A DNA stretch of 64,000 bases, taken from contig CAWALO010000022.1 in the NCBI GenBank assembly GCA_963782945.1, positions 801 to 64,800 of the forward strand. Direction: 5' to 3'. Below, piece by piece: positions 9,587 through 41,235 of this stretch. Source of the DNA: an uncultured Bacteroidales bacterium. GTDB taxonomy: Bacteria; Bacteroidota; Bacteroidia; Bacteroidales; VadinHA17. The position numbers and the translations under genes are program-made. Under the pieces are notes generated by a model. That model did no database searches. It was not told where the DNA came from and saw nothing but the letters and a program-made list of their open reading frames with translations. Positions within the stretch are counted from its first letter, which is position 1, and each line of letters begins with the position of its first letter.

Positions 9587-9740
9587 TCATTCATTTTTGA
9601 AAATTTCGAAACGGTCAATTTCAGTAGTCTGGTGCGAAGCCAGCATTATCTGTTCTTCCCTTTTTATTATTTCCGGATGCTTTGAAGACACATCATCGCT
9701 CTCCTTGAGATCAGATGAAAGATCAACCAGTTTTATCCCG
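9587..9740 (-). pseudogene. C-terminal remnant of a sulfatase-like gene
   Basis: LVDLSSDLKESDDVSSKHPEIIKREEQIMLASH resembles the arylsulfatase C-terminal motif (LYdL..D..E..nla..hPeiv); no upstream catalytic domain. Confidence 0.5.
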
Positions 9741-17669: not shown

Positions 17670-19712
17670 TTACCTGACAACGGGCATCCAAACCGACATT
17701 TCTGATTTCCCGCGGTTTCCCCATGCAAAATAAGGTATAAGTCTGATCTGAATTTTACTCAGCTCGCTATTGCTGTTCATCGGTTTATATAAAGCCGAAT
17801 TCCAATTGCCCGGCTTTTGCAGCAAGGCTTCGCCGGTTAAAAATGCGATTTCGGCACCAGCCACTTTTTGTTTTACCGGTTTTAAACTGATCGATGAAGG
17901 GATTACCACATCAAAAATACTTTTTTCGGAAAGGTCGGGCGATTCAATGCAATACACAATCGGGCCACGCATCACCGCTACCTGATTCCGTGTTTCTTCA
18001 ACCAAACGATTGGCTTCCATCAGTTTGGCCCCCATTGGCAGGTTTAGTTCAATCACATCGCCTTTGCTCCATTTTTGATTCAGCACGGCGTACGATCCGG
18101 CTTTTGTTTTTACTGATGATTCTCTACCATTAATCCGGATGGTTGCTTTGTCGGCCCAGCCCGGAATACGCAGACTGATGTCGAACGGATCTTTTGAATC
18201 CTGCTGAATGGTTATCCTGATTTTTCCATCCCAGGGGTAATTGGTTTCCTGCGAAAGCCTTACTGGTCCATTCTTAAAGGTCGTTTTCAAATCGTTGCTT
18301 CCATAAAAATTTATATAGAGTCCATCATCGGATAATGAATAGGAATATTCCTGTAATTCAGCAATTGTTCGGATGGTATTTGGAGGACAGCAGTTACAAT
18401 AACTGATGTAAGGTTCGCGGTTTTTTGACCAGCGCAGGTCATTACTTAATTCATCAACTACACAGAGTGGATTTGTATAGAAGTAGCCTTTACCATCGAG
18501 ACTAACACCGGCCAGAAGGCTGTTATACATAACCGTTTCCATTATATCAGCATAACTTGCATCGCCTGTTATTTGCAGCATCCTCCAGTTCCAAAGCAAA
18601 TTCCCTATGTTAGCACAAGATTCGTTATGGGCGGTGATATTGGGAAGTTGATATTCTCTTCCAAAAGCTTGATGGACTTGTTGTATTGAAGACTGATTGT
18701 ATGTTGTACCATTTGGCGATACACCATCATACAGAGCACCACAAGCACCAGTTATATACAGTTTGTGTTCAACCATATCATGCCAGATGTTGTTTAGTGC
18801 AATCATTAATGAATCATCTCCGGTTTCTGAATATACATCGGCAACACCGGCATATAAATAATTGGCACGGACAGCATGTCCAACAGCCTGGGTTTGTTGC
18901 TTAAACGGAATTCTGTCCTGGTTATGGTCAGTGCCATCTTTAACAAGGCTTCTGATTTTAATCAGATTTGAAGCAAGTTCAAGGTATTTTGGATCACGGG
19001 TAGTCCGGTACATTTCAACAACCCCCATATAATGAGATGGACAAATGGCACTTTGCGCCAGTTCTGCCGAAGCATTTAAATAGAAGTTGCATAGAAAATC
19101 TATGGCTTTTCGTGCAATATCCAATAAATCTGTATTTCCTGTAACACGGTAATGAAGACAGGCCGCAGTCATCAAATGTCCCATGTTGTAGGTTTCAAAA
19201 TCAAGTCTGTTTGCAAACTCATGTTTTTTATCGGGCTCGATTTTTTCTTTTATCGATACCGGAGTATGAATGTATCCATCACTGCGCTGAGCTTTTCCGA
19301 TTACACTGATGATTCTGTTAATTTCATCTTCAAGTTTCTTGTCATTCGACCGGGCATAAACCATAATTTCAGCCTCCAGCATCTTGTAAAAGTCTCCATC
19401 ATGAAATGGAGGCCCCTCATGCTCACCTTCATCAAGACCTGCGGCAATCTCAAAATTTTTAAAAGCATGGCTTATTTCATCATCCATATAATTACCCATC
19501 ATGTGGGGAACCATGGAGTTCTTACAAACGTCATAACGCTCTGCCCAAAAACCGCTTGTCCAGCTTACATCACCAATATTTACACTTTGTAACTTAACAT
19601 AAGGACTCCTGCTATAATTTGTCAGCCCCTTTTCCTGTGAATACAGATTTCCGGCAAAGAGCAAAAAAAACAGGATTGCTATTGAGAAACTTATCTTTTT
19701 GGAGGTTCTCAT
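17670..19712 (-). CDS. GH127 glycoside hydrolase, BT1003-like (aceric acid hydrolase subgroup)
   Basis: GPPFHDGDFYK, GHAVRANYLY, HNESCAN, CNCCPPN Cys cluster, YPWDG, LIPYFAWGNRG. Confidence 0.85.
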   Translation of the reverse strand: MRTSKKISFSIAILFFLLFAGNLYSQEKGLTNYSRSPYVKLQSVNIGDVSWTSGFWAERYDVCKNSMVPHMMGNYMDDEISHAFKNFEIAAGLDEGEHEGPPFHDGDFYKMLEAEIMVYARSNDKKLEDEINRIISVIGKAQRSDGYIHTPVSIKEKIEPDKKHEFANRLDFETYNMGHLMTAACLHYRVTGNTDLLDIARKAIDFLCNFYLNASAELAQSAICPSHYMGVVEMYRTTRDPKYLELASNLIKIRSLVKDGTDHNQDRIPFKQQTQAVGHAVRANYLYAGVADVYSETGDDSLMIALNNIWHDMVEHKLYITGACGALYDGVSPNGTTYNQSSIQQVHQAFGREYQLPNITAHNESCANIGNLLWNWRMLQITGDASYADIMETVMYNSLLAGVSLDGKGYFYTNPLCVVDELSNDLRWSKNREPYISYCNCCPPNTIRTIAELQEYSYSLSDDGLYINFYGSNDLKTTFKNGPVRLSQETNYPWDGKIRITIQQDSKDPFDISLRIPGWADKATIRINGRESSVKTKAGSYAVLNQKWSKGDVIELNLPMGAKLMEANRLVEETRNQVAVMRGPIVYCIESPDLSEKSIFDVVIPSSISLKPVKQKVAGAEIAFLTGEALLQKPGNWNSALYKPMNSNSELSKIQIRLIPYFAWGNRGKSEMSVWMPVVR

Positions 19713-19755: not shown

Positions 19756-23157
<3,402 letters not shown>

Positions 23158-24704: not shown

Positions 24705-25445
24705 TTATTTGATACAATAATTATCTAAGAAAGCCTTTAAATCAACTGTGCCGACCGGAGCAAACATTTTTTCCATAGCAAAAAGGCTAAATTCACTGTT
24801 TGACACAACACCTACTAGTTTACCATTTTCGTCAAGAACCGGGGCTCCGCTCAAGCCTCCCATTTGGTCAGGAATAATTAGCTTCTTTACAAGGAAGTGC
24901 GTACCTTTTGTTTTATAGAATTCAAACTCGTAAACACGTTGGTTGCCTTCCTTCATATGGCGTGTCCAACCTACAGCATATAACTTTTCACCTTTTACCA
25001 ATGGTGTTTCCCGAAATTCAAGCGGAATAACCTTTGAATTGTTCTCTTTAATGGAAAATATTAGCCAATCTTTTTCAAAAAGGCTTTTAGACTTTAAGCT
25101 TTCCGACTTATCTTCATTTAAAAGCTTTTCTGCAACCACCATCTCGTTTTCTTTGGTTAATGGACTCATTGTCCACCTTCTGATAAAATTTTCAAGAGAA
25201 ACGTTCTTAATACTATCGGGCTTAAGTACGGCCAGTATGTGCTTCGCAGTTATGGCAAAAGTATCTTTCTGGTATTTTAGCAAAAATGCAGTGCCAAGTT
25301 GATTGTACATATGGTTTCCATCAAAATACTCATAATGATTAACTAAACTAACGGGAGGAAACTGTTTGTCAGAAACTGAAATCTTTGCTTTTGAACAAGA
25401 AACAAGCACAGTTAAAATTATTAGATAATAAAACCGATTTTTCAT
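24705..25445 (-). CDS. Trypsin-like serine protease domain lipoprotein
   Basis: TAKH (His), KDW (Asp) and GLSGAPV (Ser) triad motifs; lipobox LVSC. Confidence 0.7.
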   Translation of the reverse strand: MKNRFYYLIILTVLVSCSKAKISVSDKQFPPVSLVNHYEYFDGNHMYNQLGTAFLLKYQKDTFAITAKHILAVLKPDSIKNVSLENFIRRWTMSPLTKENEMVVAEKLLNEDKSESLKSKSLFEKDWLIFSIKENNSKVIPLEFRETPLVKGEKLYAVGWTRHMKEGNQRVYEFEFYKTKGTHFLVKKLIIPDQMGGLSGAPVLDENGKLVGVVSNSEFSLFAMEKMFAPVGTVDLKAFLDNYCIK

Positions 25446-25477: not shown

Positions 25478-26719
25478 TTACGCTTTTTCTATTAATGGTT
25501 TTGAGGCATCGAGCCTGGAGAACAGGAATGCGCTGATTAGTAACATGCCTGCAATGACATACAATGGAAAGTTATAATTTTCTGTATATTTAACCAAATA
25601 ACCAAAAACGACGGCACAAACGAAACCGCCAAGGTTTCCTGCAGTATTCATGGCTGCTGAAATGGTGCCTCCCAACTCTTTCCCAATATCAATGCAGATA
25701 GCCCAGGCGCTTGGCAACATTAAATCGATTACACCAAAACAAAGAGATAAAAATACAAACACTTCAACTTTACCTGGAATAAAACCAGCAAGGAACATAA
25801 AGACTGCGGACGCAAGCAGCCCCGTGACCCCTAAAACCCGTCGCCCGATTTTCAAACCATATTTTATGGAAAATTTGTCGCTTAGATATCCGCCGGCAAT
25901 GTTTCCAATCATACTCATCAGAAAAGGAACAGCAATGGCATAGGTTAATTGACTTTTGGAAAATCCGCGCCCCTGTTCCATAAATGTAGGGAACCACGAA
26001 AAGAAAAACCAACTTCCCCAGGCATAAAACCAATACATGGTAATCAAAATCCAGAATTGCCTCTTTTTTAGAATAATTCCCCAGGGGGTTTTTATTTTTT
26101 CAATCTGTATATTTTTAACGCCAATTTCTTTAATTTCTGCTTCTTTTATCCCTTTCATTTGTGCCGGATAATCACGAAACCAGAAGTACCAAACTGCCAC
26201 CCATATTATTCCCAGTGAGCCTAAAATATAGAAAGCAGTTCGCCAGCCAAAAGCAATGATTACCGGAATAACAATAAAAGGAGTTAAAGCTCCTCCGACC
26301 CGGCTGGCAGCCCAAATAAAACCTTGAGCCCTGGCTGTTTCCGTTTTAGGGAACCACCGCCCAATTGTTCCTGTCATACACGGATATGCACCGGCTTCGC
26401 CAATTCCAAATAAAAACCGAATAATGATTAAAGCGGCAAATCCACCGGCCATGCCGGTAAAAATGGTGAACAACGACCACCACAGGACAATAATTGACAA
26501 AACTTTCCGCTGTCCGGATTTGTCTCCCCAAAGACCAAGCGGCACCTGAAAAAGTCCGTAAGAAAGAATAAAAGCGCTCAAGGTCCAACCCCATTGTTCT
26601 TTGGTGAGCTTCAGGTCCTCCATGATGCTCACCCCGGCAACACTGATGTTAATACGGTCGAGAAAAGTGATTACTCCAATCAGAACCAGCAGGGTCAATA
26701 CAATGTTTCTTTTTTTCAT
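25478..26719 (-). CDS. MFS transporter, anion:cation symporter (sugar acid) type
   Basis: DRINISVA, RFLFGIGEAGAYP, RWFPKTETARAQG and MNTAGNLGG motifs; about 12 hydrophobic segments. Confidence 0.88.
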   Translation of the reverse strand: MKKRNIVLTLLVLIGVITFLDRINISVAGVSIMEDLKLTKEQWGWTLSAFILSYGLFQVPLGLWGDKSGQRKVLSIIVLWWSLFTIFTGMAGGFAALIIIRFLFGIGEAGAYPCMTGTIGRWFPKTETARAQGFIWAASRVGGALTPFIVIPVIIAFGWRTAFYILGSLGIIWVAVWYFWFRDYPAQMKGIKEAEIKEIGVKNIQIEKIKTPWGIILKKRQFWILITMYWFYAWGSWFFFSWFPTFMEQGRGFSKSQLTYAIAVPFLMSMIGNIAGGYLSDKFSIKYGLKIGRRVLGVTGLLASAVFMFLAGFIPGKVEVFVFLSLCFGVIDLMLPSAWAICIDIGKELGGTISAAMNTAGNLGGFVCAVVFGYLVKYTENYNFPLYVIAGMLLISAFLFSRLDASKPLIEKA

Positions 26720-26732
26720 CAGGGAAGGAAGA

Positions 26733-27395
26733 TTATTTCAGGCTTTCGAGCACTGATTTTACCTGTAATGTACCAAGTAACGGACTGGAAAACACATCCT
26801 TTCCTGTCTTCTTAATTATTTCATCCTGCATTTTTGCCATCGATCCCTGGGCCAGCACAAATACATCAACTTTCCCGGCCAATGCCAGGGCTGTTTCAAG
26901 TATCTTCTGATTATGGCTTTCGACATCACCTTCCATCAATTTCCGGAAAGCTCCTTCAGCCAAACCCTTTTCAATTTCAACCGGTTTATTCAATTCTGCT
27001 GAGAATCTTTGTACCAGTCTGGCTGTTGGGTCAAGAGTGGTTGGTAAGGTAGCTAATACGCCAATCCGTTTATAGGTTCGTACTGCCTTCTCAGCCATGG
27101 CATCATCAATCTTTACAAGGGGTACCGAAACCTTTTCGCGTCCTTCAATGGCTACATCGCCAACCGACGAACAGGTATTAAAAATCACATCGGCACCAGC
27201 GTCGATAGCAGCATTGTAATAGCTGAGCAAACGCTTCCTAACAGATACGGGGACTTCCCCTGCCATGATTACATCCTGGATCAGGCTATCATCAGCAATA
27301 TTTATTAAACGGACATTTGGCAGATGTTCGGCAAACAGCGCCTTTGTTGGTTCAACCATGGTAATGGCTGTATGAATTGCAACTACTGTTTTCAT
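26733..27395 (-). CDS. Asp/Glu/hydantoin racemase-fold protein with a single catalytic Cys
   Basis: NTCSS, RIGVLATLPTT and VLAQGSM (the usual second Cys position is not Cys); 220 aa, no signal peptide. Confidence 0.7.
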   Translation of the reverse strand: MKTVVAIHTAITMVEPTKALFAEHLPNVRLINIADDSLIQDVIMAGEVPVSVRKRLLSYYNAAIDAGADVIFNTCSSVGDVAIEGREKVSVPLVKIDDAMAEKAVRTYKRIGVLATLPTTLDPTARLVQRFSAELNKPVEIEKGLAEGAFRKLMEGDVESHNQKILETALALAGKVDVFVLAQGSMAKMQDEIIKKTGKDVFSSPLLGTLQVKSVLESLK

Positions 27396-27415
27396 AATAT
27401 TTGTATTTTATTTTT

Positions 27416-28363
27416 TTATATTTTCCTTGCAATGGTAGCTTCAGCGGCATTTACAATGTCAGCAACACTCATTTTGTAAAAATCCAGTAATTCCTGTGGC
27501 AGACCAGATCCGGGGAATTTATCTCTGAGACCAATACGTGCAACAGGAACCGGAAAATTTTCAGCTGCGACTTCCATGATTGCACTGCCCAATCCATTTA
27601 TAATATTATGATCTTCAGCTGTTACCGCGGCACCGCAACTTTTTAAAACTTTAATTACACCTTCTTCGTCAAGTGGTTTTACTGTATGAACTTCTACTAT
27701 GGTTACTCCAATACCTTTCTTATCAAGAATCCCGGAGGCTTCAAACATTCGAGGTATTAAAATGCCATTACCAAATATTGCAATATCGTTGCCTTTCTGT
27801 TGCAGAATATTAATTTTTCCGGGAACAAAAGGAGTGTCTTTTTCAAAAACAACAGGATCGCGTCCACTACCCAATCGGATATAAACAGGGCCCGGGATCG
27901 ATGCTGCTGCAATAGCAGCTTGCCTGGCCTGATCAGCATCGGCCGGAACTAAAATGGTCATGTTAGGAATGGTTCGTAGTATGCCCACATCTTCGAAAAA
28001 CTGATGTGTGGTGCCTTCTCTTTCACCTCCTGAAATTCCTCCGTTTACTCCAACCAATTTTACGTTCAAATTTGGATAAGCAATAAACGTTCGAATTTGC
28101 TCACATGCGCGCATAGTAATAAATCCGGCATATGTGGCAAAAAACGGAATTAATCCTTCTAAAGCAAGTCCGGCTGAGGTTGCAGCAGCATTTTGCTCTG
28201 CAATTCCAATTTCAATGTACTGATCAGGATATTTTTCAACAAAATCAGTAGCGCGCATAGCCAGAAGACTGTCGGCGCATACCAGTATAATTCTTTTATC
28301 TTTCTCAGCCAGGGTATCTAAACCCTGCATAAAACCAACCCGTGTGCTTTCTATTTTAATCAA
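27416..28363 (-). CDS. Split transketolase, C-terminal (pyrimidine-binding) subunit, set 2
   Basis: GIAEQN, RACEQIR, EGTTHQ, GPVYIRL, KPLD and EDH motifs. Confidence 0.9.
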   Translation of the reverse strand: MIKIESTRVGFMQGLDTLAEKDKRIILVCADSLLAMRATDFVEKYPDQYIEIGIAEQNAAATSAGLALEGLIPFFATYAGFITMRACEQIRTFIAYPNLNVKLVGVNGGISGGEREGTTHQFFEDVGILRTIPNMTILVPADADQARQAAIAAASIPGPVYIRLGSGRDPVVFEKDTPFVPGKINILQQKGNDIAIFGNGILIPRMFEASGILDKKGIGVTIVEVHTVKPLDEEGVIKVLKSCGAAVTAEDHNIINGLGSAIMEVAAENFPVPVARIGLRDKFPGSGLPQELLDFYKMSVADIVNAAEATIARKI

Positions 28364-29252
28364 GGTCCTGTCCTCCTAAAATTGACATGGCTATTTTATG
28401 TTCTTCATCTGTAGGCACTCTTTTGTGCCAGGCATTATTTCCTTCCATGTAAGGTATGCCTTTCCCTTTTATTGTTTTAGCAACAAAAACAATTGGCTGA
28501 TCAGCTTCTGGTGGTTCCATATTGGGAACAATGGTCATGCCTTCTCTTTCTTCTCTCGATAAGGTTCGTCCACGTCTCGCAGCATTTTCAAAAGCCAGTG
28601 TTAGTTTTTCTACGTCGTGTCCGTCAATTTCAACGGTATACCATCCAAAAGCTCTCCATTTCTCAGCTAAATTCACCAAACCACTGATTTTGTCAACGGA
28701 TCCTCCACTTTGAATCCCATTATAATCGACTATAGCGATGAGGTTAGTTAATTTATACTTTGCTATATTCATTGCAGCTTCCCATACAATTCCTTCATTT
28801 AGTTCTCCGTCGCCGGTCACAATAAAAGTCAGGGTATCATCTCCTCGTCGACGAGCTGCAATAGCCATTCCACATCCTTGTGGTAATCCATGTCCCAAAG
28901 AACCTGAAGTTGCATCAACTCCTGGTGTCAGTTTTTGAACAGGGTGTCCCTGTAACCGGGATCCCAACGATCGTAAAGTTTTTAATTCAGCCGGAGGCAG
29001 GTAACCACGCCTGGCTAAAGCAGCATAATAAACCGGGCATGCATGACCTTTTGAAAGAATAAAACGATCCCGTCCTGTCCAGTCCGGATTTTTCGGATCT
29101 AATCTCAAAATATCAAAATAAAGTACCGATAATATATCAGCAATCGACATACATGGTCCCGGATGTCCGTCTCCGGCATAGTATATTGCATTAACTACAT
29201 CACGACGCAATTGGGTTGCATTGGTAATTAATTTTTTAATTCTCTCATTCAT
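28356..29252 (-). CDS. Split transketolase, N-terminal (ThDP-binding) subunit, set 2
   Basis: GHPG, RDRFILSKGH, GSLGHG, GDGELNEG...N ThDP motif, KGKG, WH; overlaps the start of the partner gene. Confidence 0.9.
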   Translation of the reverse strand: MNERIKKLITNATQLRRDVVNAIYYAGDGHPGPCMSIADILSVLYFDILRLDPKNPDWTGRDRFILSKGHACPVYYAALARRGYLPPAELKTLRSLGSRLQGHPVQKLTPGVDATSGSLGHGLPQGCGMAIAARRRGDDTLTFIVTGDGELNEGIVWEAAMNIAKYKLTNLIAIVDYNGIQSGGSVDKISGLVNLAEKWRAFGWYTVEIDGHDVEKLTLAFENAARRGRTLSREEREGMTIVPNMEPPEADQPIVFVAKTIKGKGIPYMEGNNAWHKRVPTDEEHKIAMSILGGQDLD

Positions 29253-29358
29253 TTGATATTTATCAATGTTAAAATTATTCTAAATTACACCTTCTAAGGC
29301 AGCCTTTCATATCGGTTTTGAAAAACATAAACTAATATCCGAATTGAATAGAAGTTCA

Positions 29359-30759
29359 CTAATCAAGATATTCTGGTCGCGCCGGATTAAAAAACTCTAT
29401 TAAATCGGTTTCTTCCAGCGCAACAGATCCGTGAGGCTCATTTGAATCAAACATATAGCCATCTCCGGAACCAAGAATTCGTTTTTTCCCCTTCTTATCA
29501 AAGAACTCAACTTTTCCTTTTAACACGAATCCACTCTGAGCGGCAGGATGAACATGAAGATTCACACGGGCACCTTTCTTTTCATGAAAATGACAAAGCA
29601 TGTTATTGGCATTATAAACCAGTGTTGATCGTAATATGCCCGGACGTATCTCAACAGGAGGCTTATCACCAACTCCACAGAATCCGCGCTTTACAAAAAC
29701 TATAGTTTTCACAGACGCGGTACGTCTTTCACGGATCACTTCCAATAATTTATCCCAACCATTAAGAAATGCTGTTCGGAAGCGTACAACTGGTCCAAAA
29801 TCATGAAATTCATCAGGTTGTAAACCATCCTCAGCATAAGCCTTAACAAATGTTGGTAGTTTATCCTGTAACTCTTGCATAACAGTATCTGGAACAGGTT
29901 TGCTAAAATTATTTTCGATGACTGGTGATTTTTCCTCAAGTACAGATGCAGTAGAAGCCCAATTTAAAGTGACGTGAACATTACCTCCTACAAATTCTGT
30001 AAAATGGTGTAAATCGCGGGCACCACCACCTAAAATAATACCTGGTAATTTTTGATCCTGCATAAGCCTGTATTGCTTTTTAGCTACCAAACATCCCGCG
30101 AGCTTTATTGCATCAGGGCTTAATGTAACGCCTAGCGATTCAGCTTCAGCCTTAAGCTCTTCATCAAGAATACCAGAAATATGGGTAACAAAAAAAGCAG
30201 GTGCATTTCCCGATTCTTCTGAAGCCTTTTTATACACTTTACAAACCTCAATGGCTTGTGATATTGCCATAATTTCAGTTGCAATAACAGGTTTATTTAA
30301 ACGCACCAGGCAATCAATTGCAACAAGCCCCGAAGGAATTACAGGTATCTTGGCTATACAATTTGGAATCATTTCAAAATCCGCAAGCGCTTCAGTAACA
30401 ATTTTTGCTGAATTTTTTTCAAGGTGTGGATCCATCTGGAGTGAAACAAATCCTTCACGTCCGTTGGTATCCTTGTATCGGGGTAAAAAACTTTCGGCCA
30501 TTTTGGCAACTAGTAGTCTTTGTATCAAAGCGGCAGCTTCTTTATCATCCTGTGTTTCAGATATTGCCTTATCAACAATTCGAAGAGTCTCCTCCTGTGT
30601 TTCCGGAAGGATCAGCAAACGTGCAACATAAGTTGGATTTGTAGTGCATGATATAGCTCCGGCTTTCAATGCTATCTCTGCTTCTTCAACAGTTGGATTA
30701 TTGATCCAAAGGCGGGTTTGAGTCTGGGTAGCAACTTCCCTGAAATATCCTCTTGTCAT
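29359..30759 (-). CDS. Transaldolase-family protein fused to a C-terminal cupin (KdgF-like) domain
   Basis: TTNPT, GFVSLQMDP and Schiff-base KIP motifs; last ~100 aa HVHPAAQ...GDGY...EPHG...FNPARPEY is a cupin. Confidence 0.8.
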   Translation of the reverse strand: MTRGYFREVATQTQTRLWINNPTVEEAEIALKAGAISCTTNPTYVARLLILPETQEETLRIVDKAISETQDDKEAAALIQRLLVAKMAESFLPRYKDTNGREGFVSLQMDPHLEKNSAKIVTEALADFEMIPNCIAKIPVIPSGLVAIDCLVRLNKPVIATEIMAISQAIEVCKVYKKASEESGNAPAFFVTHISGILDEELKAEAESLGVTLSPDAIKLAGCLVAKKQYRLMQDQKLPGIILGGGARDLHHFTEFVGGNVHVTLNWASTASVLEEKSPVIENNFSKPVPDTVMQELQDKLPTFVKAYAEDGLQPDEFHDFGPVVRFRTAFLNGWDKLLEVIRERRTASVKTIVFVKRGFCGVGDKPPVEIRPGILRSTLVYNANNMLCHFHEKKGARVNLHVHPAAQSGFVLKGKVEFFDKKGKKRILGSGDGYMFDSNEPHGSVALEETDLIEFFNPARPEYLD

Positions 30760-30795
30760 GATAAGGTATATTATGTTCTTTTAAATTTTTTCATG

Positions 30796-30823
30796 CAAAA
30801 CTAAATATGGAAAATTATTACAA
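30796..30823 (-). promoter_or_regulatory. Putative Bacteroidota primary-sigma promoter for the transaldolase module
   Basis: TAGTTTTG (-7 consensus TAnnTTTG) at 30796-30803, with TTG 17 nt upstream. Confidence 0.45.
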
Positions 30824-30880: not shown

Positions 30881-31729
30881 TTATTTAACAAGTTCGAATT
30901 TTGTGTAATGTAACCCTTTGTTTTCCATACCGTCCAGGACCTTTAAGGCATATTCAATTCCGTGAACTGCCATTTGGGAAGCATAAGCATCAATGGTTGC
31001 TATCATTTTACCAGATTGAATTAATGGGCGTACTGAAGCATCATTATCAAAACCTACCACGAGAATTTTGCCTGCTTTTTCATTTTTCTCTAAAACTCTT
31101 AAAACACCTAATGCCATGGCATCATTGCAACACATTACTCCTTTAATATCCTGATATTTAGCTAATATTTCTTCAAAAACCTTTGCAGCCTTGTCTGTTT
31201 CCCAATCTGCAGCTTCCGAAGCAATTAAGTTTAGTTGGTACTCAGCTATGGTTTTTAGAAAGCCTTGTTTACGCTGTTGGGCATTTTCTGCAACCACGAG
31301 ACCTTCAATTAAAACTACATTAGCACCTTTGTGCAGCTTTTTCGCCATCACGTTGCCAACCATATATGCTGCATTTTCATTATCCGGTCCAACAAAGGTT
31401 AATTCGATATTATTTTCTATCAGCAGTTGTTCGTCGAGTTTTATATCGATATTAATTACCTTGATTCCTGCTTTAACAGCTTTCACAACTACAGGGACCA
31501 ATGCTTTTGAATCAATTGGTACAATTACAATTGCATCTGCATTATCTTCAATCAGCAATTCAACAAGTTTTATTTGTAAATCAATGTCAGTTTGATTTGA
31601 TGTTCCAACTACAACCAACTCAAATCCATCGTGCTCAGCAGCAAATTCCAAGGCACCTTTTTTCATTTCCTGAAAAAATTCAGCATGTAGCGACTTCATT
31701 ACCAAGCCTATTATCGGTTTGTTTTTCAT
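30881..31729 (-). CDS. RbsB/LacI-type sugar-binding domain protein, no signal peptide
   Basis: IGLVMKSL.AEFF, AIVIVP.DS, VGPDN, R..GF, ADW, NDAMALG and GFD motifs; starts directly at the first strand. Confidence 0.85.
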   Translation of the reverse strand: MKNKPIIGLVMKSLHAEFFQEMKKGALEFAAEHDGFELVVVGTSNQTDIDLQIKLVELLIEDNADAIVIVPIDSKALVPVVVKAVKAGIKVINIDIKLDEQLLIENNIELTFVGPDNENAAYMVGNVMAKKLHKGANVVLIEGLVVAENAQQRKQGFLKTIAEYQLNLIASEAADWETDKAAKVFEEILAKYQDIKGVMCCNDAMALGVLRVLEKNEKAGKILVVGFDNDASVRPLIQSGKMIATIDAYASQMAVHGIEYALKVLDGMENKGLHYTKFELVK

Positions 31730-31735: not shown

Positions 31736-33058
31736 CTAGTCTTGAATATATACGCAACGCTCCATCCTTTTAGCAAAATCTTTCAGAAATTCCTCCCTCC
31801 ACCGGTTTACCGTTTTGGCACCAATATGTTCTCCCTCTGAAAATTCCGGATTGGGATTATCGGTCCACCAATTTGGATATTTTAAGGATGGATGGCTAAC
31901 CAATTCCGCAGGTGGAATATAAGCAGTTACACTTCCCGTTTTTCCATTGAAACTGTTAATGTTGCTTTCAATTATAAAATCAAATGTTTTGGCACTTTTA
32001 GGAGAAAAACGAAACCTGACTTTACCATCACCCAAAAAATATCCGGTTAAAGCCTGATTTTCCACGAGAAGCCTTGCTACCGGTTTTTCCGGCAGATTTT
32101 CTTTCAGGGAAAGGGCAATTTCAAGAATTGAAAACTCCTGAATACTGTCAGATTTCAATGGAAGTTTATCGAATAAATAATACGGCCGTTCCCATGCTTT
32201 AACGTATTGCCCTCCCCAGTTCGAAAGCGTAGGGTCTTCGGGATCAGGGCTGTTCAGCAGCCAGGCGAGCGATGGAGTGTCTCCCATTTTTATTGAGCCA
32301 CCTAACTGGGTCATAAAAAATGCCCCAAGTGCCCCTTTATCCTTGATATGCTTTTCAGGAAAACCTTCGTTACCCCATTCGCCTTCCTGATTTCCGCCTG
32401 TGAACCAACCCCGGTATGTTGCATTCGATTCGATCATCCACAACTCAGGAAAATGATCGGCGATATACTGGTACGCATCGGGAGACCATTTCTTATTTGG
32501 TCCTCCGATATAATATACCCGGAGTTTTGATAAAATATCCGGAGCATCGTGTAAAGCCTGCGCCAGGTCTTCAATGCCCCCCCAAACCAGAATATATAAA
32601 GGGCGGGAATCATCTTTCCGGGCACATTTTATAATCCATTCCGAACCTTCAGTAGGTTTGTCGAAGCCTGCAAACCCGGCAACATCTATCGCACCCTGTT
32701 TCGTAATTGACCTGAGTGAATCAGGCGCAGGGTATTTTTCAGAATAATCTTTCAGGTTGGGATAATCTTTTTCGTATTGATCGATTACCTTGAGGATATG
32801 CTCTTTTCGCCCGGGTCCGAATGGGGATGAAATTAATCCTTCGATTTCAAGTGTATCGGCATATAAAAGCAGGTGCACCATGGATTGAAAATCATCGGGA
32901 TCTGTTCCTCCAATGTCGGTGGACACGACAACACGATACTTTGATTCTTCCGGTTCTGACTCATTTTTGTTCCCCTTTTGAGCACTGCACGAAACGAGCA
33001 ACAAGAAGCCTGAAAGGATTATACCGCAAAGGGGGTGGAGTTTTTTAATTTCCTGCAT
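31736..33058 (-). CDS. DUF1593 (Sde182 nucleoside-hydrolase-like) lipoprotein, copy 1
   Basis: RVVVSTDIGGTDPDDFQSMVHLLLY, IEGLIS, WGG...LAQAL, MGDTPS, WGG; lipobox VSC. Confidence 0.85.
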   Translation of the reverse strand: MQEIKKLHPLCGIILSGFLLLVSCSAQKGNKNESEPEESKYRVVVSTDIGGTDPDDFQSMVHLLLYADTLEIEGLISSPFGPGRKEHILKVIDQYEKDYPNLKDYSEKYPAPDSLRSITKQGAIDVAGFAGFDKPTEGSEWIIKCARKDDSRPLYILVWGGIEDLAQALHDAPDILSKLRVYYIGGPNKKWSPDAYQYIADHFPELWMIESNATYRGWFTGGNQEGEWGNEGFPEKHIKDKGALGAFFMTQLGGSIKMGDTPSLAWLLNSPDPEDPTLSNWGGQYVKAWERPYYLFDKLPLKSDSIQEFSILEIALSLKENLPEKPVARLLVENQALTGYFLGDGKVRFRFSPKSAKTFDFIIESNINSFNGKTGSVTAYIPPAELVSHPSLKYPNWWTDNPNPEFSEGEHIGAKTVNRWREEFLKDFAKRMERCVYIQD

Positions 33059-33066
33059 TGCTGAAT

Positions 33067-34503
33067 TTAATTAACATTAATAATAATTCTCCTGTAACGG
33101 GTTAACCGGGGAGAACCATGGTCCGTAACAGCCAGAATAACATGAATTGTTCCCACGCCTGGTGCCATTACCCGAGATGTTGGTACCGTAAACCATGCCT
33201 TTTGCTGATCAGAATTTTTAATTTCAATTGGCTGGCCGCTTCGTGAGTTTGAAACAGGGAAGGTTCCTGCTTCGCTGTAGCAGAACCAATTGTAAGCAAG
33301 TGCATCTCCATCGGGATCGGTTGAACCAACTGCACTTAATTCAACACGGTCGCCTATTTTTGATTCCAGATATAGGTCTTGCTCAATTTTTACCACCGGC
33401 GGATGGTTTGCGCTTTCAACAGGTTGAATAGTCCAGTCCATGCGGGCAGCAAAATCGTTTTGAAAAGCCTGACGCCAACGCCAGATGGTTTCGTGGTTGC
33501 CATCGTGCCATCGTCCATCCACCCCAAAAACCTCATCATCGGCATCGCTCCAGAATGGCCTTGTTTCAGCATACAAATGCCATTTTTGCATCCTCGGAGT
33601 GTAAAATTCGTAACGGCCTCCCCAGCCCCCCCAGTCGGGGTGTTCGGGGTAGCTCAGCCCATTGTTTATCAGGTTTAAAAACGAAGGGGTATCACCTTCC
33701 ATGAGGTACTCCCATAGGGGATATTCAGTTCCAAGTGGTCCTTTCCTTCGAATGTTCTGGTCGAGCCATTCGTTGGTTACCAGGGTAAAATCGGCGCCAT
33801 CGCAGCGGGCATGAAAATAGTCGCCGCTTATACCGCTCCATGTTGCGTGGTGGTAAGCTCCTCCGGCACTAAATCCGGGACTAACGATATAAAACAGTTC
33901 CGGAAATTCTTTTCGTATCCACGGGCCACTGTCGTCCTGATCGGAGATGGTATAAACGCGCAGTTTTGCCACGAATTTATTAACTTCCGCAGCCGTGCGT
34001 GTTTTTTTTACTTTCCAAAGCGCTTGCGCCAGCACATTCGGGCCACCCCACACCGAAACCCATAGCGGCCGGGGGTCATTTTTATCGACAGCCTTAATAA
34101 GAAGTTCTGAAGCAGGCGAATCTTTGCCCTCACCAACAGCTGACATGCCATATTCCGGGAGTCCTTCGGTAATAACAGAACGAATGAATTCAATGGTTGG
34201 GAAGCCGGATTCGTGTTTTTCGAGGTTATCGCGCACTTTACCATAAGCTTCCGCTATTTGCCGGATTCGCTCCGGCGCGATTCTTTTTTGCTGGTGAATG
34301 GAAGTTGTGGCAGCAAGTCCTTCAACATCATACTGATTGGCATAAACCAGAAAACGGACCATAGACATGGCATCATCTGGCTCGTTTTCAATATCAGTCA
34401 GAACGAAAACACGCTGTTTTTCATTCGCTGCTGCAACCAGGCAAAACAGTGATAAAAAGACAAAAAGAATATTTCGCAGCAGGTAATTCTTTAAAATTAT
34501 CAT
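33067..34503 (-). CDS. DUF1593 nucleoside-hydrolase-like protein with C-terminal Ig-like domain, copy 2
   Basis: [61 protein letters not shown]; probable start 34503. Confidence 0.88.
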
Positions 34504-34548
34504 TTTTTTGTATTTTGAAGTTATTAATATTAATCGATAGGGATTCAA

Positions 34549-35544
34549 TCACTTACACCAGTCAGCACGTTCCCTGAACTCCGATTGAAAATCGTTCTTC
34601 CACCTGGAAATTGATGAACCCCCTGGCCCGTCAACATAATGATTTGTAGTTCCCTTTCGCACGTACTGTCCTCCCCAACCGGGCTGGGTTGGATCTTCAG
34701 GATTATTGATTCCACGGTTTGCACTTACCAGGTAAAGAAAGGAAGGTGAGTCACCCTCAATCACTCCGGGGCCGGACATTGCTTTGGGCGGGTATATCGC
34801 ACAGAGAGGACCGTGGTTGTTAATGATATTTGTTTCGACCCACTCCCTGCTATCGCTGCTGAACATTCCCTGGTAGGTTTTTTTCGACTCGATGATAAAT
34901 AAATCAGGAAACTCATTGATGAGCCAATCGTGTGTTGCATCCTGACAGGCAATCAGAAAGATGCGGAGTTTACTTATGAAAACCTTGAACTCCTGTTCAC
35001 TACGCGTGTTTTTTACATCCCAGATTGCCTGTGCAACCTCCCGTGGACCTCCCCATACACTGATCCAAAGAGGACGTGGATCTGGCTTGTCAGCAGCAGC
35101 AATAATAGCATTCGAAGCCTCACTGTCCAGGCCCTTCCCAATAATCTCAGTATGCATTTGTTTTCCACATCCCCATTGAATTTTAACACCATTGTTATTA
35201 CCCTTGCCCTCGTATGTAACAGCACGCAGAGCATCAGCAGTTGGATAGCCGGGATCATGTTTTCTCAGGTTCTCATCCACCTTGTCGTATTCATCAAGCA
35301 CTGCCAGAATATTTTTCTTTTCGGCAACCATTTCAAAAGTACCCGCCGAAGCAATCAATCCCTCAACGTCAAATTCGCTGGAATAAAGGAGGAAACGAAC
35401 CATCGACTGCACATCATCAGGGTCGCTGTTGGTAACCGGAAAAGGTGGGAAATCGGATGAAATTATAATACGTTGTTGAGAGTATCCTGTTTTAAATATA
35501 ACAAGGAATAATGAAAATATAAGTATGTGTTGTATCCTATTCAT
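34549..35544 (-). CDS. DUF1593 nucleoside-hydrolase-like protein, catalytic domain only, copy 3
   Basis: SSDFPP...SDPDDVQSMVRFLLY, WGGPREVAQA, QD, EGDSPSFL, WGG; ends RADWCK; signal peptide. Confidence 0.85.
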   Translation of the reverse strand: MNRIQHILIFSLFLVIFKTGYSQQRIIISSDFPPFPVTNSDPDDVQSMVRFLLYSSEFDVEGLIASAGTFEMVAEKKNILAVLDEYDKVDENLRKHDPGYPTADALRAVTYEGKGNNNGVKIQWGCGKQMHTEIIGKGLDSEASNAIIAAADKPDPRPLWISVWGGPREVAQAIWDVKNTRSEQEFKVFISKLRIFLIACQDATHDWLINEFPDLFIIESKKTYQGMFSSDSREWVETNIINNHGPLCAIYPPKAMSGPGVIEGDSPSFLYLVSANRGINNPEDPTQPGWGGQYVRKGTTNHYVDGPGGSSISRWKNDFQSEFRERADWCK

Positions 35545-35562
35545 TTTAATATTGCAGATTTC

Positions 35563-36972
35563 CTATTTTGCCGGTTCAAAAATTACTCTTCGGTAACTGG
35601 TCAGATTAGGCACGCCGTCATCTGTTATTTCGCATATTACATGAAAATTTTTTCCTGCCGAACCGGCCGGAACATCAATGGCAACAATGCTTGTGTTACC
35701 TTTTGCTATGGTTATCTCATTCGAGTATGTACCTGCTTCAGGTTGTACCCACCATTTGAAGGTCAGTTTATCGCCATCAGGGTCATATGATTCTGATGCC
35801 TCAAGAGTAATCGTAGTTCCTTGCCGGGGTTTCTTCTTCAGGATTTCAACCCCCTCATTTTTATCAATAACTGCGACTGGATTCCGGTTTCCCTTGCCTT
35901 CATTCGCCCAATCCATACGTGCTGCAAAATTGTTAAATGTTGCCGTGTAGAAATGTTCTTCATATTTTCGGCAGGTATTGTAGGTTGAGTTTCTGTGGTT
36001 TGTAAATGCATAAGTTGAATTGTCTTCACACAACTGCCATTCAGAGTATCCACCCCAGCCAGCCTGTGTTGGTTCGTCCGGGTTGTTCAGTCCGTTGGGC
36101 AAAATATGCAGAAATGCGGGTGTGTCACCTTCCACACCATATTTGTATTTCGGATAAACCCTGCCAAGATTTCCATGGTTCTGAATATGAGTTGCATATT
36201 CTTCCCAACTACTTTTTCCGGTTCCGTTCTGGTATTTCCAGGCACATTCATCCCAAATAAAAAACAGGTCTTTTTCAAACTCACGGCGCATCCATTGGTG
36301 GGAACTGATGTCAAAATCGGTTCTTTGGTCACGGTCCTGATCGGTAATGGTGTAAACACGAAGTTTATGCAGGAAAGCTTTTAACTCTTCGGGGCTCCGG
36401 GTTTGCTGAACGCGCCAGATTGCCTGCGCCAGTGTGTTGCCTCCACCCCAAACAGTTATCCAAACCGGACGGTCATCATTTTCATCAGCAAGTTTAATAA
36501 TCAGGTCGCTGCCGGGAGAATCATTGTTTTTCCCGATAAATCTGAAGCCCCTGTTTTTACTTCCAAACATGGTCTGTTTTCTTAAGTATTCTGCACTTGG
36601 CCAGTAACCGGTTTTTTGTATTGATTCCTCTTTTAAAAATTTCTTCTGTCCTGAACGTTTCATCAGATTCGGTAAATCTTTTTCGTAGGCATCAGTTGCA
36701 TCATGAATTAAATGAAAAAAATCATCGCGGGTTTTATCCAGACTCCAGCCCGTAGTAAAAATCATTCCTTCGATTTCGAAAAGGTCGGCATGAACAAGTA
36801 GCCTGACAAGTGATTCGCTATCGTCTGTTTCCCAGGTTGAGACATCAGTAAGTACAACTATTCTGGGCTTAAGTGGACCTGATTTGGGTATTAATTTTTG
36901 CTTTGGTTGAGCACAAATACCTTGCAAAAAGGTTATAACCAGTAAAAGAACCAGAGGAAGTTTAATTCTCAT
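35563..36972 (-). CDS. DUF1593 nucleoside-hydrolase-like protein with C-terminal Ig-like domain, copy 4
   Basis: RIVVLTDVSTWETDD, WGGGNTLAQA, ITDQD, EGDTPAFL, NNFAARMDW, DPDGD; probable start 36972. Confidence 0.88.
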   Translation of the reverse strand: MRIKLPLVLLLVITFLQGICAQPKQKLIPKSGPLKPRIVVLTDVSTWETDDSESLVRLLVHADLFEIEGMIFTTGWSLDKTRDDFFHLIHDATDAYEKDLPNLMKRSGQKKFLKEESIQKTGYWPSAEYLRKQTMFGSKNRGFRFIGKNNDSPGSDLIIKLADENDDRPVWITVWGGGNTLAQAIWRVQQTRSPEELKAFLHKLRVYTITDQDRDQRTDFDISSHQWMRREFEKDLFFIWDECAWKYQNGTGKSSWEEYATHIQNHGNLGRVYPKYKYGVEGDTPAFLHILPNGLNNPDEPTQAGWGGYSEWQLCEDNSTYAFTNHRNSTYNTCRKYEEHFYTATFNNFAARMDWANEGKGNRNPVAVIDKNEGVEILKKKPRQGTTITLEASESYDPDGDKLTFKWWVQPEAGTYSNEITIAKGNTSIVAIDVPAGSAGKNFHVICEITDDGVPNLTSYRRVIFEPAK

Positions 36973-37069
36973 GAATGATAAGATTATTATAAGTATTAGT
37001 ATCAATTTCCGGAAGACGGGCCTTCCAGAACAATTTTAAAGACATCCCATTGTTCAATCTGGGTTTTTT

Positions 37070-37196: not shown

Positions 37197-37781
37197 TTAG
37201 GCTTTATCGTGGTTATAGAGGTCCCAGCCTAAATAGTGACCGATGGCTTCATCCAGTATCTCTGCTACATGACCTCGTACCATTGCAACATGGTGTTCGT
37301 ACCCGTTTTTGCACATGTATTTCATCAGTTTATTCAGGTTCCCGGTAAAATAATACTTCATTTTAACGGGTGCACCTTCTCCCGGTTTTGCTTCAATTAT
37401 GAAATTAAAAATTATTCCGCCTAGCCAGGCTATACCGCTGCCAATCGGGAATGCAACAGACATTCCGGCAACAGCAATGGCTGCAACAAGTAGAAGGTTT
37501 CCGAGATTCCAGACAGTACCAACCAGCGTGGCGTAAAAAATGCTGCGGCCATTTGCCTGATTCAGATCTTCAACAAATGTTCTGCCATGCTCACCAAAAC
37601 TTCCGGCGGTAAATCCCCATAACAGAGCAGTCAATACGAGGCCTAAAACAAAATCCCAGTAGAATAATTCAAAGCGCCATGTTTTTGCAGCCAGTTTTTG
37701 GGTATTTGACCACGAACCCCAACAGACCATGCAAAATACAAAAGCACAAACTGCGAGTCAGTAATTTTCAATGAGAAACAT
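37197..37781 (-). pseudogene. Chimeric remnant: internally deleted GRP-family sugar transporter fused to an isomerase C-terminus
   Basis: ATG at 37781 with in-frame TGA at codon 8; N-part matches 55851-56870, jumps to GAPVKM..YF.G, then to LMKYMCKNGYEHHVAMVRGHVAEIL, which matches the C-terminus of 56882-58297. Confidence 0.85.
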
Positions 37782-38776: not shown

Positions 38777-38869
38777 GAAAAGAATGTATTACTTTTTTTT
38801 TCTTAAATCATATACCATCTGTTTTATTTCAGGCTTTTCTATAGATTCTAACACGATGGCAAATTGTAG

Positions 38870-39721: not shown

Positions 39722-39784
39722 ATGGTCTTTAGCTTTTTCAGGCTTACCAGATATTTCGTTTACAAGCTTAAAACACTTTTAAAG

Positions 39785-39792
39785 CAAACATA
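39785..39792 (-). promoter_or_regulatory. Putative -7 promoter element upstream of the transketolase pair
   Basis: TATGTTTG on the minus strand about 65 nt upstream of the ORF start. Confidence 0.4.
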
Positions 39793-39931
39793 AAGAAAAT
39801 AAACGTAAATATAGGTAATTAATAAATAAAAATTAAAAAGACCAACAAAAGTCAGATTTTTATCCTTTGTCAGTACGATTTGAATGAGGTGTATTGGAAA
39901 TAGCCTGACGTTTAAGACAGCAACATTTTCT

Positions 39932-40978: not shown

Positions 40979-41235
40979 GTGAGTAAATATTTATTGCTTT
41001 TCCTGGTAATAATTTCCATTAGCTAACTAAGTTGTTCGCGAAATAAGAACAAAAACATATCAGAACTTAAAGAAAAGCCCCGGGTAGTTGTAAGTTCAGA
41101 TATTGGAGGTACAGATCCGGATGATTGAAAATAATATTAAAGGTATCGGAGTAATGAGCACCGATTTTGGTAATTATTATGGCGGTTCCATCAAAATGGG
41201 AGATATCCCTTCGTTAGCTTATCTCTTGAATGGAA
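40979..41235 (+). pseudogene. Decayed DUF1593 gene, paralog of 31736-33058, on the opposite strand
   Basis: Reads VSKYLLLFLVIISIS*LSCS...KPRVVVSSDIGGTDPDD*, then shifts frame to GGSIKMGDIPSLAYLLN; large internal deletion. Confidence 0.75.

Follow-up and report, generated by a model that had tools for sequence, protein, structure and literature searches.

A close described counterpart of the system treated here is the D-apiose transketolase pathway, which starts with an aldose-to-ketose isomerization and uses a split thiamine diphosphate (ThDP)-dependent transketolase to debranch a C3-branched ketose derived from rhamnogalacturonan II (RG-II), so that a ketone and not an aldehyde is left; its details were reportedly laid out by Carter et al. 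in 2018. In the oxidative D-apiose/D-apionate routes, DUF1537 kinases (OiaK) and RuBisCO-like proteins (RLPs; OiaC/OiaX) are said, after Carter 2018 and Zhang 2016, to process the branched beta-keto acid 3-oxo-isoapionate, with the DUF1537 kinase OtnK acting in tetronate routes. The sulfo-transketolase/sulfo-transaldolase pathways (sulfo-TK/sulfo-TAL; SqwGH, SftT, SftI) dispense with a kinase and isomerize an anionic sugar to its ketose, which either a transaldolase or a split transketolase then cleaves, glyceraldehyde 3-phosphate serving as the acceptor. We analyzed a five-gene module in a 64,000-nucleotide stretch of DNA from an uncultured Bacteroidales bacterium (hereafter, the window; G000:C22:801-64800, G000 being the window's own genome of 35 contigs). 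The module is a candidate catabolic unit for aceric acid (AceA; 3-C-carboxy-5-deoxy-L-xylose), a sugar that, to our knowledge, is apparently found in nature only in RG-II. The available parts of PMC13001218 and PMC13753588 give the names ApsI (isomerase), AplK (kinase), and AptA/AptB (apulose-4-phosphate transketolase) for the apiose pathway; the former also names aptA and aptB of E. coli SE15, and the latter describes DUF1537-type tetronate/apionate enzymes in part.

The module comprises a transaldolase-like (TAL-like) domain fused to a cupin (TAL-cupin), a split transketolase (TK1), a racemase-fold protein (RAC), and a major facilitator superfamily (MFS) transporter. A first-pass annotation of the same DNA had read it as a candidate kinase-less transketolase/transaldolase pathway for AceA lying just upstream of a GH127 cluster. 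Open reading frames (ORFs) read with Pfam and NCBIfam confirmed the five genes, all on the minus strand and tightly packed, and placed module and GH127 in one same-strand array. Neither a kinase nor a dehydrogenase is encoded within 25478-30803. Comparative genomics supports the AceA assignment as a candidate, and we consider it probable that the five genes import and break down AceA released by GH127. The same comparison changed its outline, however: the transketolase/TAL form is rare, and the conserved core consists of RAC and an anion transporter. Our conclusion is that a wider system centered on RAC has so far gone unnoticed and that the window carries one of its rare forms, with a transketolase and TAL-cupin. 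Its support comes from gene content, family membership, conserved residues, co-occurrence, and synteny, from which the individual steps are inferred. In NCBIfam (June 2026), the module proteins give generic matches only, all below cut-offs, and the same release has equivalogs for the RG-II hydrolases of Bacteroides thetaiotaomicron.

A RAC-type gene with a carboxylate transporter is the conserved core, and its partners are exchangeable. Type A cassettes (G377, G244, G114, G290, and G396) combine the MFS transporter and RAC with a DUF1537 kinase and a BKACE protein. Type B (G000, G170, and metagenome relatives) joins MFS and RAC to TK1 and TAL-cupin. Type C (G272) has an SBF transporter and a 39%-identical RAC homolog (RAC') next to TK1 (76-85% identical) and a class I/II aminotransferase, and type D (G611, G498, G482, and G670) associates SBF and RAC' with a DUF1537-family kinase and an RLP. 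Among the eight genomes positive for both RAC and the aceric acid hydrolase, TK1 occurs in three and BKACE in the other five, with no overlap. Two species of one genus, G377 and G272, hold types A and C in their RG-II loci among the same neighboring gene families (GH137-like, GH78, and three PelZ-like genes). RAC and RAC' have the TCSS and LAQ(G/A)SM motifs in common, and every RAC-type gene is paired with a carboxylate-type transporter, whether ACS-MFS, SBF, or GntP. Cassette neighbors are enzymes for chain B of RG-II (GH137-like, GH78, GH2 beta-galactosidase, and GH127), and the four cassette types, found at or near RG-II loci, are spread over at least eight families. The kinase-less description is true of the TK1/TAL-cupin variant only; types A and D carry a DUF1537 kinase.

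Family assignments of the exchangeable partners were examined by profile matches and by comparison with solved proteins. The type D kinase aligns with a Pfam-verified DUF1537 group at an hhalign probability of 99.2%; for the type A kinase, no solved relative was found by sequence, and its family comes from Pfam and hhalign. The type D RLP matches 3NWR, its best solved relative, at E 3.7e-114. In G611, the genes for GH127, RLP, DUF1537, RAC', and SBF are contiguous and co-directional (L116, 9374-16111), and in L117-L119 the RLP likewise belongs to an operon-like array with these genes, which points to a new RLP role in pectin side-chain catabolism. Type D pairs a DUF1537 kinase with an RLP, as the oxidative apiose/apionate routes do for 3-oxo-isoapionate. 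Unlike those routes, the cassettes have no dehydrogenase, lactonase, or oxidoisomerase, a racemase-fold protein stands in the place of ApnO, and the window variant has a transketolase and TAL-cupin rather than a kinase and an RLP. In type A, BKACE (PF05853) and the DUF1537 kinase lie beside RAC and MFS in the RG-II loci L109 (G377), L110 (G244), L111 (G114), L112 (G396), and L113 (G290). A CotH-like protein of 914-934 aa with lamin-tail and Fn3-associated domains is encoded between BKACE and the kinase in G244 and G114.

By analogy with these partner families, the RAC product would have to serve as a transketolase donor and as an acid-sugar kinase substrate. Moreover, the product or its phosphate would have to be a beta-keto acid fit for BKACE or RLP, reached from an imported carboxylate without redox chemistry. 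The ketose of AceA, HOCH2-CO-C(OH)(COO-)-CH(OH)-CH3, satisfies all four constraints and hence fits as the common RAC product. It is the methyl homolog of 3-oxo-isoapionate, and the AceA route involves no redox reaction, in keeping with the lack of dehydrogenase genes. The beta-keto acid logic of the first-pass annotation gains support from the pairing of RAC and its transporter with BKACE, DUF1537 kinases, or an RLP elsewhere. The choice of AceA among the acids of RG-II rests on adjacency to chain B enzymes and on this chemical fit. That RAC acts as a cofactor-free aldose-ketose isomerase in a modular system with at least four interchangeable downstream cassettes is a tentative proposal, which we hold to be possible rather than probable.

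In the proposed pathway, the DgoT-like MFS transporter would import the AceA anion. RAC, in every variant, would convert AceA without a cofactor to its 2-ketose, the branched beta-keto acid 2-C-(1-hydroxyethyl)-3-oxo-tetronate; a suprafacial 1,2-proton shift would be in keeping with the one cysteine of RAC acting as base. TK1 would then take C1-C2 as a ThDP-bound glycolaldehyde unit and transfer it to an aldehyde, for example glyceraldehyde 3-phosphate, from which xylulose 5-phosphate would form. Since C3 is a tertiary carbon, the remainder would be a 2-oxo acid, 3-hydroxy-2-oxobutanoate. Such a product had been suggested from the sequence, and it would explain the aminotransferase that follows TK1 in type C. 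In the fourth step, the KdgF-like cupin would tautomerize this alpha-ketol acid to a beta-keto acid, which Lys137 of the TAL fold would bind and then decarboxylate or cleave. Elsewhere, the third and fourth steps would be replaced by TK1 and an aminotransferase, a DUF1537 kinase and BKACE, or a DUF1537 kinase and an RLP. Compared with the apiose transketolase pathway, the module has no kinase, its proposed substrate bears a carboxylate instead of a phosphate, the TK1 loop differs, and nothing there corresponds to RAC, the TAL-like domain, or the cupin.

Association with RG-II degradation was measured as co-occurrence with the aceric acid hydrolase, called as NF049879 above its cut-off of 950. 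In a draw of 401 genomes from the order, with RAC scored at E <= 1e-30, the hydrolase occurs in 16 genomes and RAC in nine, eight of which are hydrolase-positive. The association has a Fisher p of 7e-12 by genome and 1.3e-6 by family, figures to be read with kin not being independent and five families being involved; without G000, they become 1.6e-10 and 1.8e-5. RAC and the hydrolase lie 7 kb apart in the window, 3 kb in G244, 11.5 kb in G114, 25 kb in G272, 30 kb in G377, and 40 kb in G290. In a separate draw from the phylum, a RAC-like gene (41-46% identity) was found in four of 250 other genomes; the hydrolase, sought in those four, is present in all of them and 2.7, 25, and 55 kb away in three. 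The GH127 co-occurrence that the first-pass annotation had named as its check was therefore observed: the two genomes of the order draw that carry the fused module both have the hydrolase, compared with 16 among all 401, and so do 12 of the 13 genomes bearing a RAC-type gene.

The fused gene itself is much more restricted. Among its best 120 database relatives, 23 have fusion length, the remainder being TAL-like proteins roughly 350 aa long that share 45-54% identity with it. No ortholog was found in 36 other genomes of the genus (best match, 32% identical). Four genomes of the order draw match the fusion at E <= 1e-30, with orthologs only in G000 and G170 (64% identical), and in a phylum draw of 401 genomes G000 alone matches; a similarity scan of contigs with the fusion protein gave one locus only. 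TK1 and/or RAC and MFS adjoin the fused gene in each of the 16 metagenome loci where it is at least 59% identical. L019 (85% identical) carries GH78, GH140, an esterase, the module, GH2 beta-galactosidase, and GH127 in an arrangement that differs from the window. In G170, the five genes lie among polysaccharide-synthesis genes, and a different contig of this genome holds GH127 and GH140. In six further loci (44-49% identity), which also have RAC and TK1, TAL and cupin are encoded by two distinct genes. Two of the six are L082 and L037; the other four (L035, L036, L066, and L078; 46-49%) place the module among genes for a PL10 lyase, a GH137-like protein, an AptAB-like pair, DUF1537, PdxA, and dihydrodipicolinate synthase (DHDPS)-family proteins, and L035 additionally carries GH140.

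The structure model of RAC has a pLDDT of 93.7, and Foldseek relates it to glutamate, aspartate, allantoin, and hydantoin racemases at TM 0.7-0.8 with 12-19% identity. Its description as a single-cysteine protein holds for the whole sequence: the one cysteine lies in NTCSS (T74-C75-S76-S77), and LAQ(G/A)SM replaces the second. The two-domain fold of Asp/Glu/hydantoin racemases has a catalytic cysteine in each domain; RAC shares the fold but has C75 only, position 184 being Gly or Ala in all relatives. T74, C75, S76, D97, H161, Q183, S185, and M186 are invariant. RAC has far more relatives than the fusion (2202 proteins at E <= 1e-10), and the ESM Atlas returned only generic 'Asp/Glu racemase family' clusters. 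The fold is shared with arylmalonate decarboxylase and with two-cysteine racemases. Like RAC, arylmalonate decarboxylase is without one of the two catalytic cysteines; in comparison, RAC keeps the N-terminal one (TCSS) and has LAQ(G/A)SM at the C-terminal site, a mirror image. A classical racemase or epimerase of AceA was considered and rejected, AceA having no alpha-hydrogen.

The transporter, which the first-pass annotation had called a sugar-acid type, resembles anion:cation symporters (ACS), and its closest solved relative is the D-galactonate carrier DgoT (E 4e-41). Its best NCBIfam family, TIGR00893 (D-galactonate transporter family), scores 245 bits, under the cut-off of 395. The D-R and E positions match in the alignment to DgoT, and we take these residues to couple protons and carboxylate. 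Transporter orthologs are 58-81% identical beside RAC in five other genomes and 72-94% identical in module-bearing loci.

TK1 was correctly called a split transketolase, with the PP domain and the Pyr/C-terminal domains on two adjacent polypeptides whose genes overlap by 8 nt. Its subunits share 38% and 35% identity with AptA and AptB of E. coli, and the N subunit is also 38% identical to that of a second split transketolase in the window, which is itself 49% and 38% identical to AptA/AptB. The first-pass annotation had judged this second pair to fit apiose, and its nearer relation to E. coli AptA/AptB agrees. TK1 is not the closest AptAB relative, and the module has no AplK kinase alongside. 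With the second pair covering apiose, TK1 would be a paralog for something else. TK1 was sought in 17 chosen genomes (the 16 hydrolase-positive ones and G091), and orthologs of the second pair (46-69% identical) occur in 11 of these, including all eight with RAC and hydrolase. The active-site loop of the TK1 C subunit reads GEREG(T/V)(T/S)HQ, with an extra Arg and with Asn replacing the His of the THD motif. The canonical THD His and GED Asp, which presumably bind substrate, are missing from all six TK1-group sequences aligned. The same loop is GED-GPTHQ in the genome's ordinary transketolase and G(A/P)L-G(N/S)THH in AptB-like proteins.

The fusion protein has a TAL-fold domain at residues ~1-350 and a KdgF-like cupin at ~365-466. 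Its model (pLDDT 90.9) matches transaldolases in Foldseek at TMt 0.74-0.77, and the TAL-like domain passes Pfam TAL_FSA (PF00923) with 62.6 bits against a cut-off of 27. The transaldolase label is accurate for the fold and for the Schiff-base Lys137, which aligns with the IKVP lysine of N. gonorrhoeae transaldolase and is K in 84 of 85 relatives. It fails for the canonical Asp and Glu: Asn20 and Gln108 stand where the N. gonorrhoeae enzyme has the WLDN Asp and the SLEV Glu, residues that we take to be D17 and E96 of TalB. A canonical transaldolase role was set aside because the Asp and Glu are missing. Among the 85 relatives, fused or stand-alone, Asn occupies position 20 in 81 and Gln occupies position 108 in all, so this signature marks an uncharacterized TAL-like clade and not a degenerate copy. 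Thr161 is kept, and Glu162 and His193 are conserved too. I197 falls at the phosphate-Arg site (presumably R181 of TalB) by manual realignment of THISGILD with S-x-F-x-x-R-x-D, a region where the HMMER alignment differs. Against NCBIfam transaldolase/FSA equivalogs, the best score is 50 bits, with cut-offs of 234-712.

The cupin resembles KdgF (YeKdgF 5FPX/5FPZ, BeKdgF 7ZYB/7ZYC, and Halomonas 5FQ0) in sequence, fold, and pectin setting. It matches YeKdgF at E ~7e-11, and Foldseek gives 32-36% identity, TMt 0.86-0.91, and rmsd 1.4-1.6 A. H402, H404, Q408, and H443 are invariant in the fusion family and match the conserved His/His/Gln/His site of KdgF, which we assume to bind metal. In contrast to KdgF, the module cupin is fused to a TAL-fold domain in Bacteroidota and elsewhere is a separate gene adjoining a TAL-like gene. 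It always accompanies TK1 and RAC, not KduI/KduD-type genes.

The Asn/Gln TAL-like clade mostly occurs without TK1 or RAC, in stand-alone loci L038-L098 (e.g., L052, 8911-12278). In 16 of these loci the gene adjoins one for a xylose-isomerase-like TIM barrel, and genes for uroporphyrinogen decarboxylase (URO-D)-like, double-SDR, 2-hydroxyacid dehydrogenase, or HpcH-aldolase proteins are often near. A URO-D-like (methyltransferase-type) gene is present in 10 loci, namely the RG-II-type loci L035, L036 (2679-3764), L066, and L078 of a distant lineage and six stand-alone TAL-like loci; a bearing on the 2-O-methyl sugars of RG-II is pure speculation.

Several observations weigh against the AceA pathway. 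The carbon alpha to the carboxylate of AceA is quaternary, so the classical racemase-fold mechanism is impossible, and RAC would have to use a reaction for which this fold is not known. BKACE, in its canonical mechanism, requires an alpha-hydrogen, which the AceA ketose does not have, and ordinary transketolases want D-threo substrates, whereas this ketose is of L-threo type. The role of TAL-cupin in the fourth step is a guess and the least certain part of the scheme, and the best relatives of the cupin act on unsaturated uronates. The statistics tie RAC to RG-II degradation and cannot on their own single out AceA among the RG-II acids, because the hydrolase marks the whole RG-II locus. Eight of the 16 hydrolase-positive order genomes are without RAC, and in G091, the one RAC-positive genome without the hydrolase, the RAC-like gene (41% identical) adjoins genes for a GntP permease and a DUF1537-like protein. 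In G170 and metagenome relatives (L025-L031 and L033), the module sits among polysaccharide-synthesis genes, not in a polysaccharide utilization locus (PUL). No RG-II gene was seen within 10 kb in L082 (LacI, GH42, and ABC transporter) or L037 (ABC transporter and two-component system). In L013, MFS and TK1 are separated by a GH88 gene, and in L020 such a gene adjoins TK1. BKACE is absent from the B. thetaiotaomicron control genome.

Among the other explanations, taken in declining order of probability, the first is that the cassettes handle a different RG-II acid, most plausibly 3-deoxy-D-lyxo-heptulosaric acid (Dha), which we consider unlikely. An aldolase encoded elsewhere would yield pyruvate and a four-carbon uronate, and RAC would isomerize the latter to 3-oxo-tetronate. 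The end would be DUF1537 phosphorylation and decarboxylation, or TK1 action to glyoxylate followed by transamination to glycine. The racemase fold mostly binds dicarboxylates, and 3-oxo-tetronate has the alpha-hydrogen that would suit both this fold and BKACE better than the AceA ketose. It is also a known DUF1537 substrate (OtnK; available part of PMC13753588). L036-type loci carry a DHDPS-family aldolase, DUF1537, and PdxA adjoining the module, yet none of the Bacteroidota cassettes examined contains an aldolase. Co-occurrence is equally compatible with any RG-II sugar, but the neighbors are chain B enzymes (GH137-like, GH78, GH2, and GH127), no chain D enzyme was recognized among them, and GH127 directly abuts the cassette in G611. 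An AptAB-related, branched-sugar transketolase would, moreover, be unnecessary for an unbranched substrate.

A second explanation, which we judge quite unlikely, is that the module acts on an unrelated keto acid or sugar, such as a beta-galactoside aglycone, and hitch-hikes as a mobile five-gene unit. The unit does move as a block into the non-PUL settings of G170 and its relatives, it stands beside GH42 and an ABC transporter in L082, and stand-alone TAL-like relatives keep other company (the xylose-isomerase-like TIM barrel in 16 loci, SDR, 2-hydroxyacid dehydrogenase, and HpcH aldolase). Chance travel accords poorly, however, with a hydrolase in 12 of 13 RAC-type genomes, often within 3-55 kb, and with four cassette types at or near RG-II loci in at least eight families.

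Very unlikely, in our estimate, is that the module offers another way to use galacturonate, glucuronate, or the 4,5-unsaturated uronate that GH88/GH105 enzymes set free, in which case the KdgF-like cupin would linearize the sugar and the transketolase or TAL-like enzyme would cleave the keto-uronate without phosphorylation. The identity of the cupin to KdgF proteins (32-36%, TMt 0.86-0.91), the GH88 gene in or beside the module in L013/L020 and elsewhere in the window, and the hexuronate and aldonate carriers within the MFS family all speak for it. Uronate use is far commoner than RG-II use, yet RAC is present in only nine of 401 genomes, eight of them with the hydrolase. The cupin is absent from the three other cassette types, and 4-deoxy keto-uronates would not have the hydroxyl needed for TAL-type cleavage.

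The lowest probability falls to a second, kinase-free apiose route, in which an isomerase would form apulose, the transketolase would yield a C2 unit and dihydroxyacetone, and the TAL-like enzyme, resembling fructose-6-phosphate aldolase (FSA), would join dihydroxyacetone and glyceraldehyde 3-phosphate. TK1 is an AptAB paralog, the TAL-like domain has Gln where FSA has Gln, and a GH140 apiosidase lies in the same array. In L036-type loci, RAC comes directly after a gene for a FucI/SftI-like isomerase, and the genes of an AptAB-like pair come after the cupin. The window, however, already has an AptAB-like pair, an AplK-like kinase (39%), a FucI-like isomerase, and a neutral-sugar permease; a carboxylate transporter accompanies every RAC-type gene; and RAC, BKACE, DUF1537, and RLP all indicate an acid, with RAC unable to oxidize apiose. 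Sulfoglycolysis was rejected, since the FucI-like isomerase scores 103 bits, far under the SftI (NF048012) cut-off of 700. This isomerase lies 26 kb away beside a kinase, the solved sulfofructose transaldolase matches the TAL-like domain at E 0.29 only, and the setting is pectin degradation, not sulfoquinovose.

If the AceA pathway holds, it would supply the missing catabolic route for this sugar with concrete candidate genes, and it would show four enzyme sets in different bacteria for one branched beta-keto acid problem. New activities would include a sugar isomerase of the racemase fold, a transketolase acting on a carboxy-ketose, new reactions of BKACE and RLP, and a TAL-fold Schiff-base decarboxylase fused to a KdgF-type tautomerase. 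The large Asn/Gln TAL-like clade and the single-cysteine racemase-fold clade would gain their first functional leads, as would BKACE and RLPs in glycan metabolism. The system would also mark RG-II degraders that may gain AceA carbon, with a bearing on cross-feeding in gut and sediment. According to the available part of a preprint (10.64898/2026.03.13.711244), which also gives the AceA-Rha-Api piece of RG-II, B. thetaiotaomicron secretes part of an AceA-containing trisaccharide; a BT1003 mutant is reported to accumulate AceA-Rha-Api. Among the full-text literature matches listed, whose coverage leaves out subscription journals and whose texts were available in part, no catabolic pathway for AceA is described, and nothing relevant joins apiose and apulose with a transketolase, DUF1537 with BKACE, or RG-II with a transketolase plus transaldolase or racemase.

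Table 1. Module genes, candidate promoter motif, and other features of the window (positions count from its first nucleotide)
Feature	Position	Strand	Basis or detail
TAL-cupin fusion	29359..30759	minus	466 aa; Pfam TAL_FSA 62.6 bits + Cupin_2 35.8 bits
TK1 N subunit (ThDP-binding PP domain)	28356..29252	minus	Pfam Transketolase_N, 169 bits
TK1 C subunit (Pyr + C-terminal domains)	27416..28363	minus	Pfam Transket_pyr + Transketolase_C
RAC, racemase-fold protein	26733..27395	minus	220 aa; Pfam Asp_Glu_race, 62.4 bits
MFS transporter, proposed aceric acid importer	25478..26719	minus	413 aa; Pfam MFS_1
TAGTTTTG (TAnnTTTG), candidate Bacteroidota -7 promoter motif	30796..30803	minus	sequence reading
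GH2 beta-galactosidase (context)	19756..23145	minus	Pfam and NCBIfam
GH127 aceric acid hydrolase (context)	17670..19712	minus	NF049879, 1098.6 bits vs cut-off 950
GH88 gene	48752-50122		
Enolase-superfamily protein	8308-9618	minus	MR_MLE_C
S1-like ORF	24705-25445	minus	246 aa; weak trypsin-like Pfam matches
Periplasmic-binding-protein-fold ORF	30881-31729	minus	282 aa; Peripla_BP_4, RbsB/AlsB-like
DUF1593 genes, four in tandem	31736-37005	minus	Pfam Sde182_NH-like
DUF1593 gene	51003-52463	minus	Pfam Sde182_NH-like
DUF1593 gene	53891-55354	minus	Pfam Sde182_NH-like
Chimeric permease/isomerase remnant	37197-37730	minus	177 aa
Second split transketolase	37817-39721		two genes, 38870-39721 and 37817-38776
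DeoR + AptAB-like transketolase	37817-40693		probable apiose route, one site
Lon protease C-terminal fragment	41230-41736	plus	168 aa
AraC, GlpK-like kinase, FucI/SftI-like isomerase, sugar permease	55851-61067		probable apiose route, other site
Intact permease and FucI-like isomerase	55851-58297		
AplK-like kinase	58322-59821		39% identical to E. coli AplK

Upstream of the fusion, a motif that may be the candidate promoter of the first-pass annotation was found: TAGTTTTG lies 37 nt before the fusion ATG, within a 121-nt gap, and its start on the minus strand, 30803, is the end coordinate given for the module there. TAnnTTTG, which we take to be the Bacteroidota -7 consensus, is not enriched in the window (49 matches vs 63 expected by chance), and because the motif occurs at chance frequency, TAGTTTTG is only a candidate promoter. 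Scans of the window for sigma-70-type promoters and for a terminator consensus were likewise at chance level.

Downstream of the module and on the same strand follow the S1-like ORF, GH28, GH2 beta-galactosidase, GH127, GH78, GH140, GH43, and GH28, with gaps of 12-59 nt in this array and no terminator-like site in these intergenic gaps. Chain B of RG-II contains ...Gal-beta1,2-AceA-alpha1,3-Rha-beta1,3'-Api. The GH2 beta-galactosidase would remove the Gal capping AceA in this chain, and GH127 would release AceA from it. Copies of the GH2 gene at 65-84% identity lie beside cassettes in L019, L114, and L117. Upstream are the periplasmic-binding-protein-like ORF, four DUF1593 genes, the second split transketolase with DeoR, SusC/SusD, and GH88, and further upstream an AraC-headed set with a GlpK-like kinase, a FucI/SftI-like isomerase, and a sugar permease. 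The probable apiose route is thus split over two sites. Its kinase scores marginally above the GlpK cut-off, and contig C13 carries another GlpK-like gene. This kinase was rejected as a module member, as it lies 27 kb away behind other operon starts and fits the apiose route.

Six DUF1593 paralogs, nucleoside-hydrolase-like by Pfam, occur in the locus. Their Pfam domain begins at residue 25-48, which may leave space for a signal peptide, and a ribosidase-like fold in a locus for furanosides (Api, AceA, and Araf) suggests that DUF1593 is an unrecognized glycosidase family. The 282-aa ORF directly upstream of the module has no helix-turn-helix domain by Pfam and no signal-peptide-like N-terminus by eye, and neither L019 nor G170 has it next to the module; this ORF could encode a cytoplasmic sensor or could be a remnant. 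The S1-like ORF between MFS and GH28 has one trypsin-like match under and one just over the Pfam cut-off, and it is absent from the same position in L019. The enolase-superfamily gene that closes the glycosidase array may encode an acid-sugar dehydratase acting on a different RG-II sugar. The chimeric remnant joins a piece of a GlcU/ureide-type permease to the C-terminus of a FucI-like isomerase, of which intact copies are present in the window (Table 1). Together with the Lon fragment, it looks like a rearrangement scar inside the locus.

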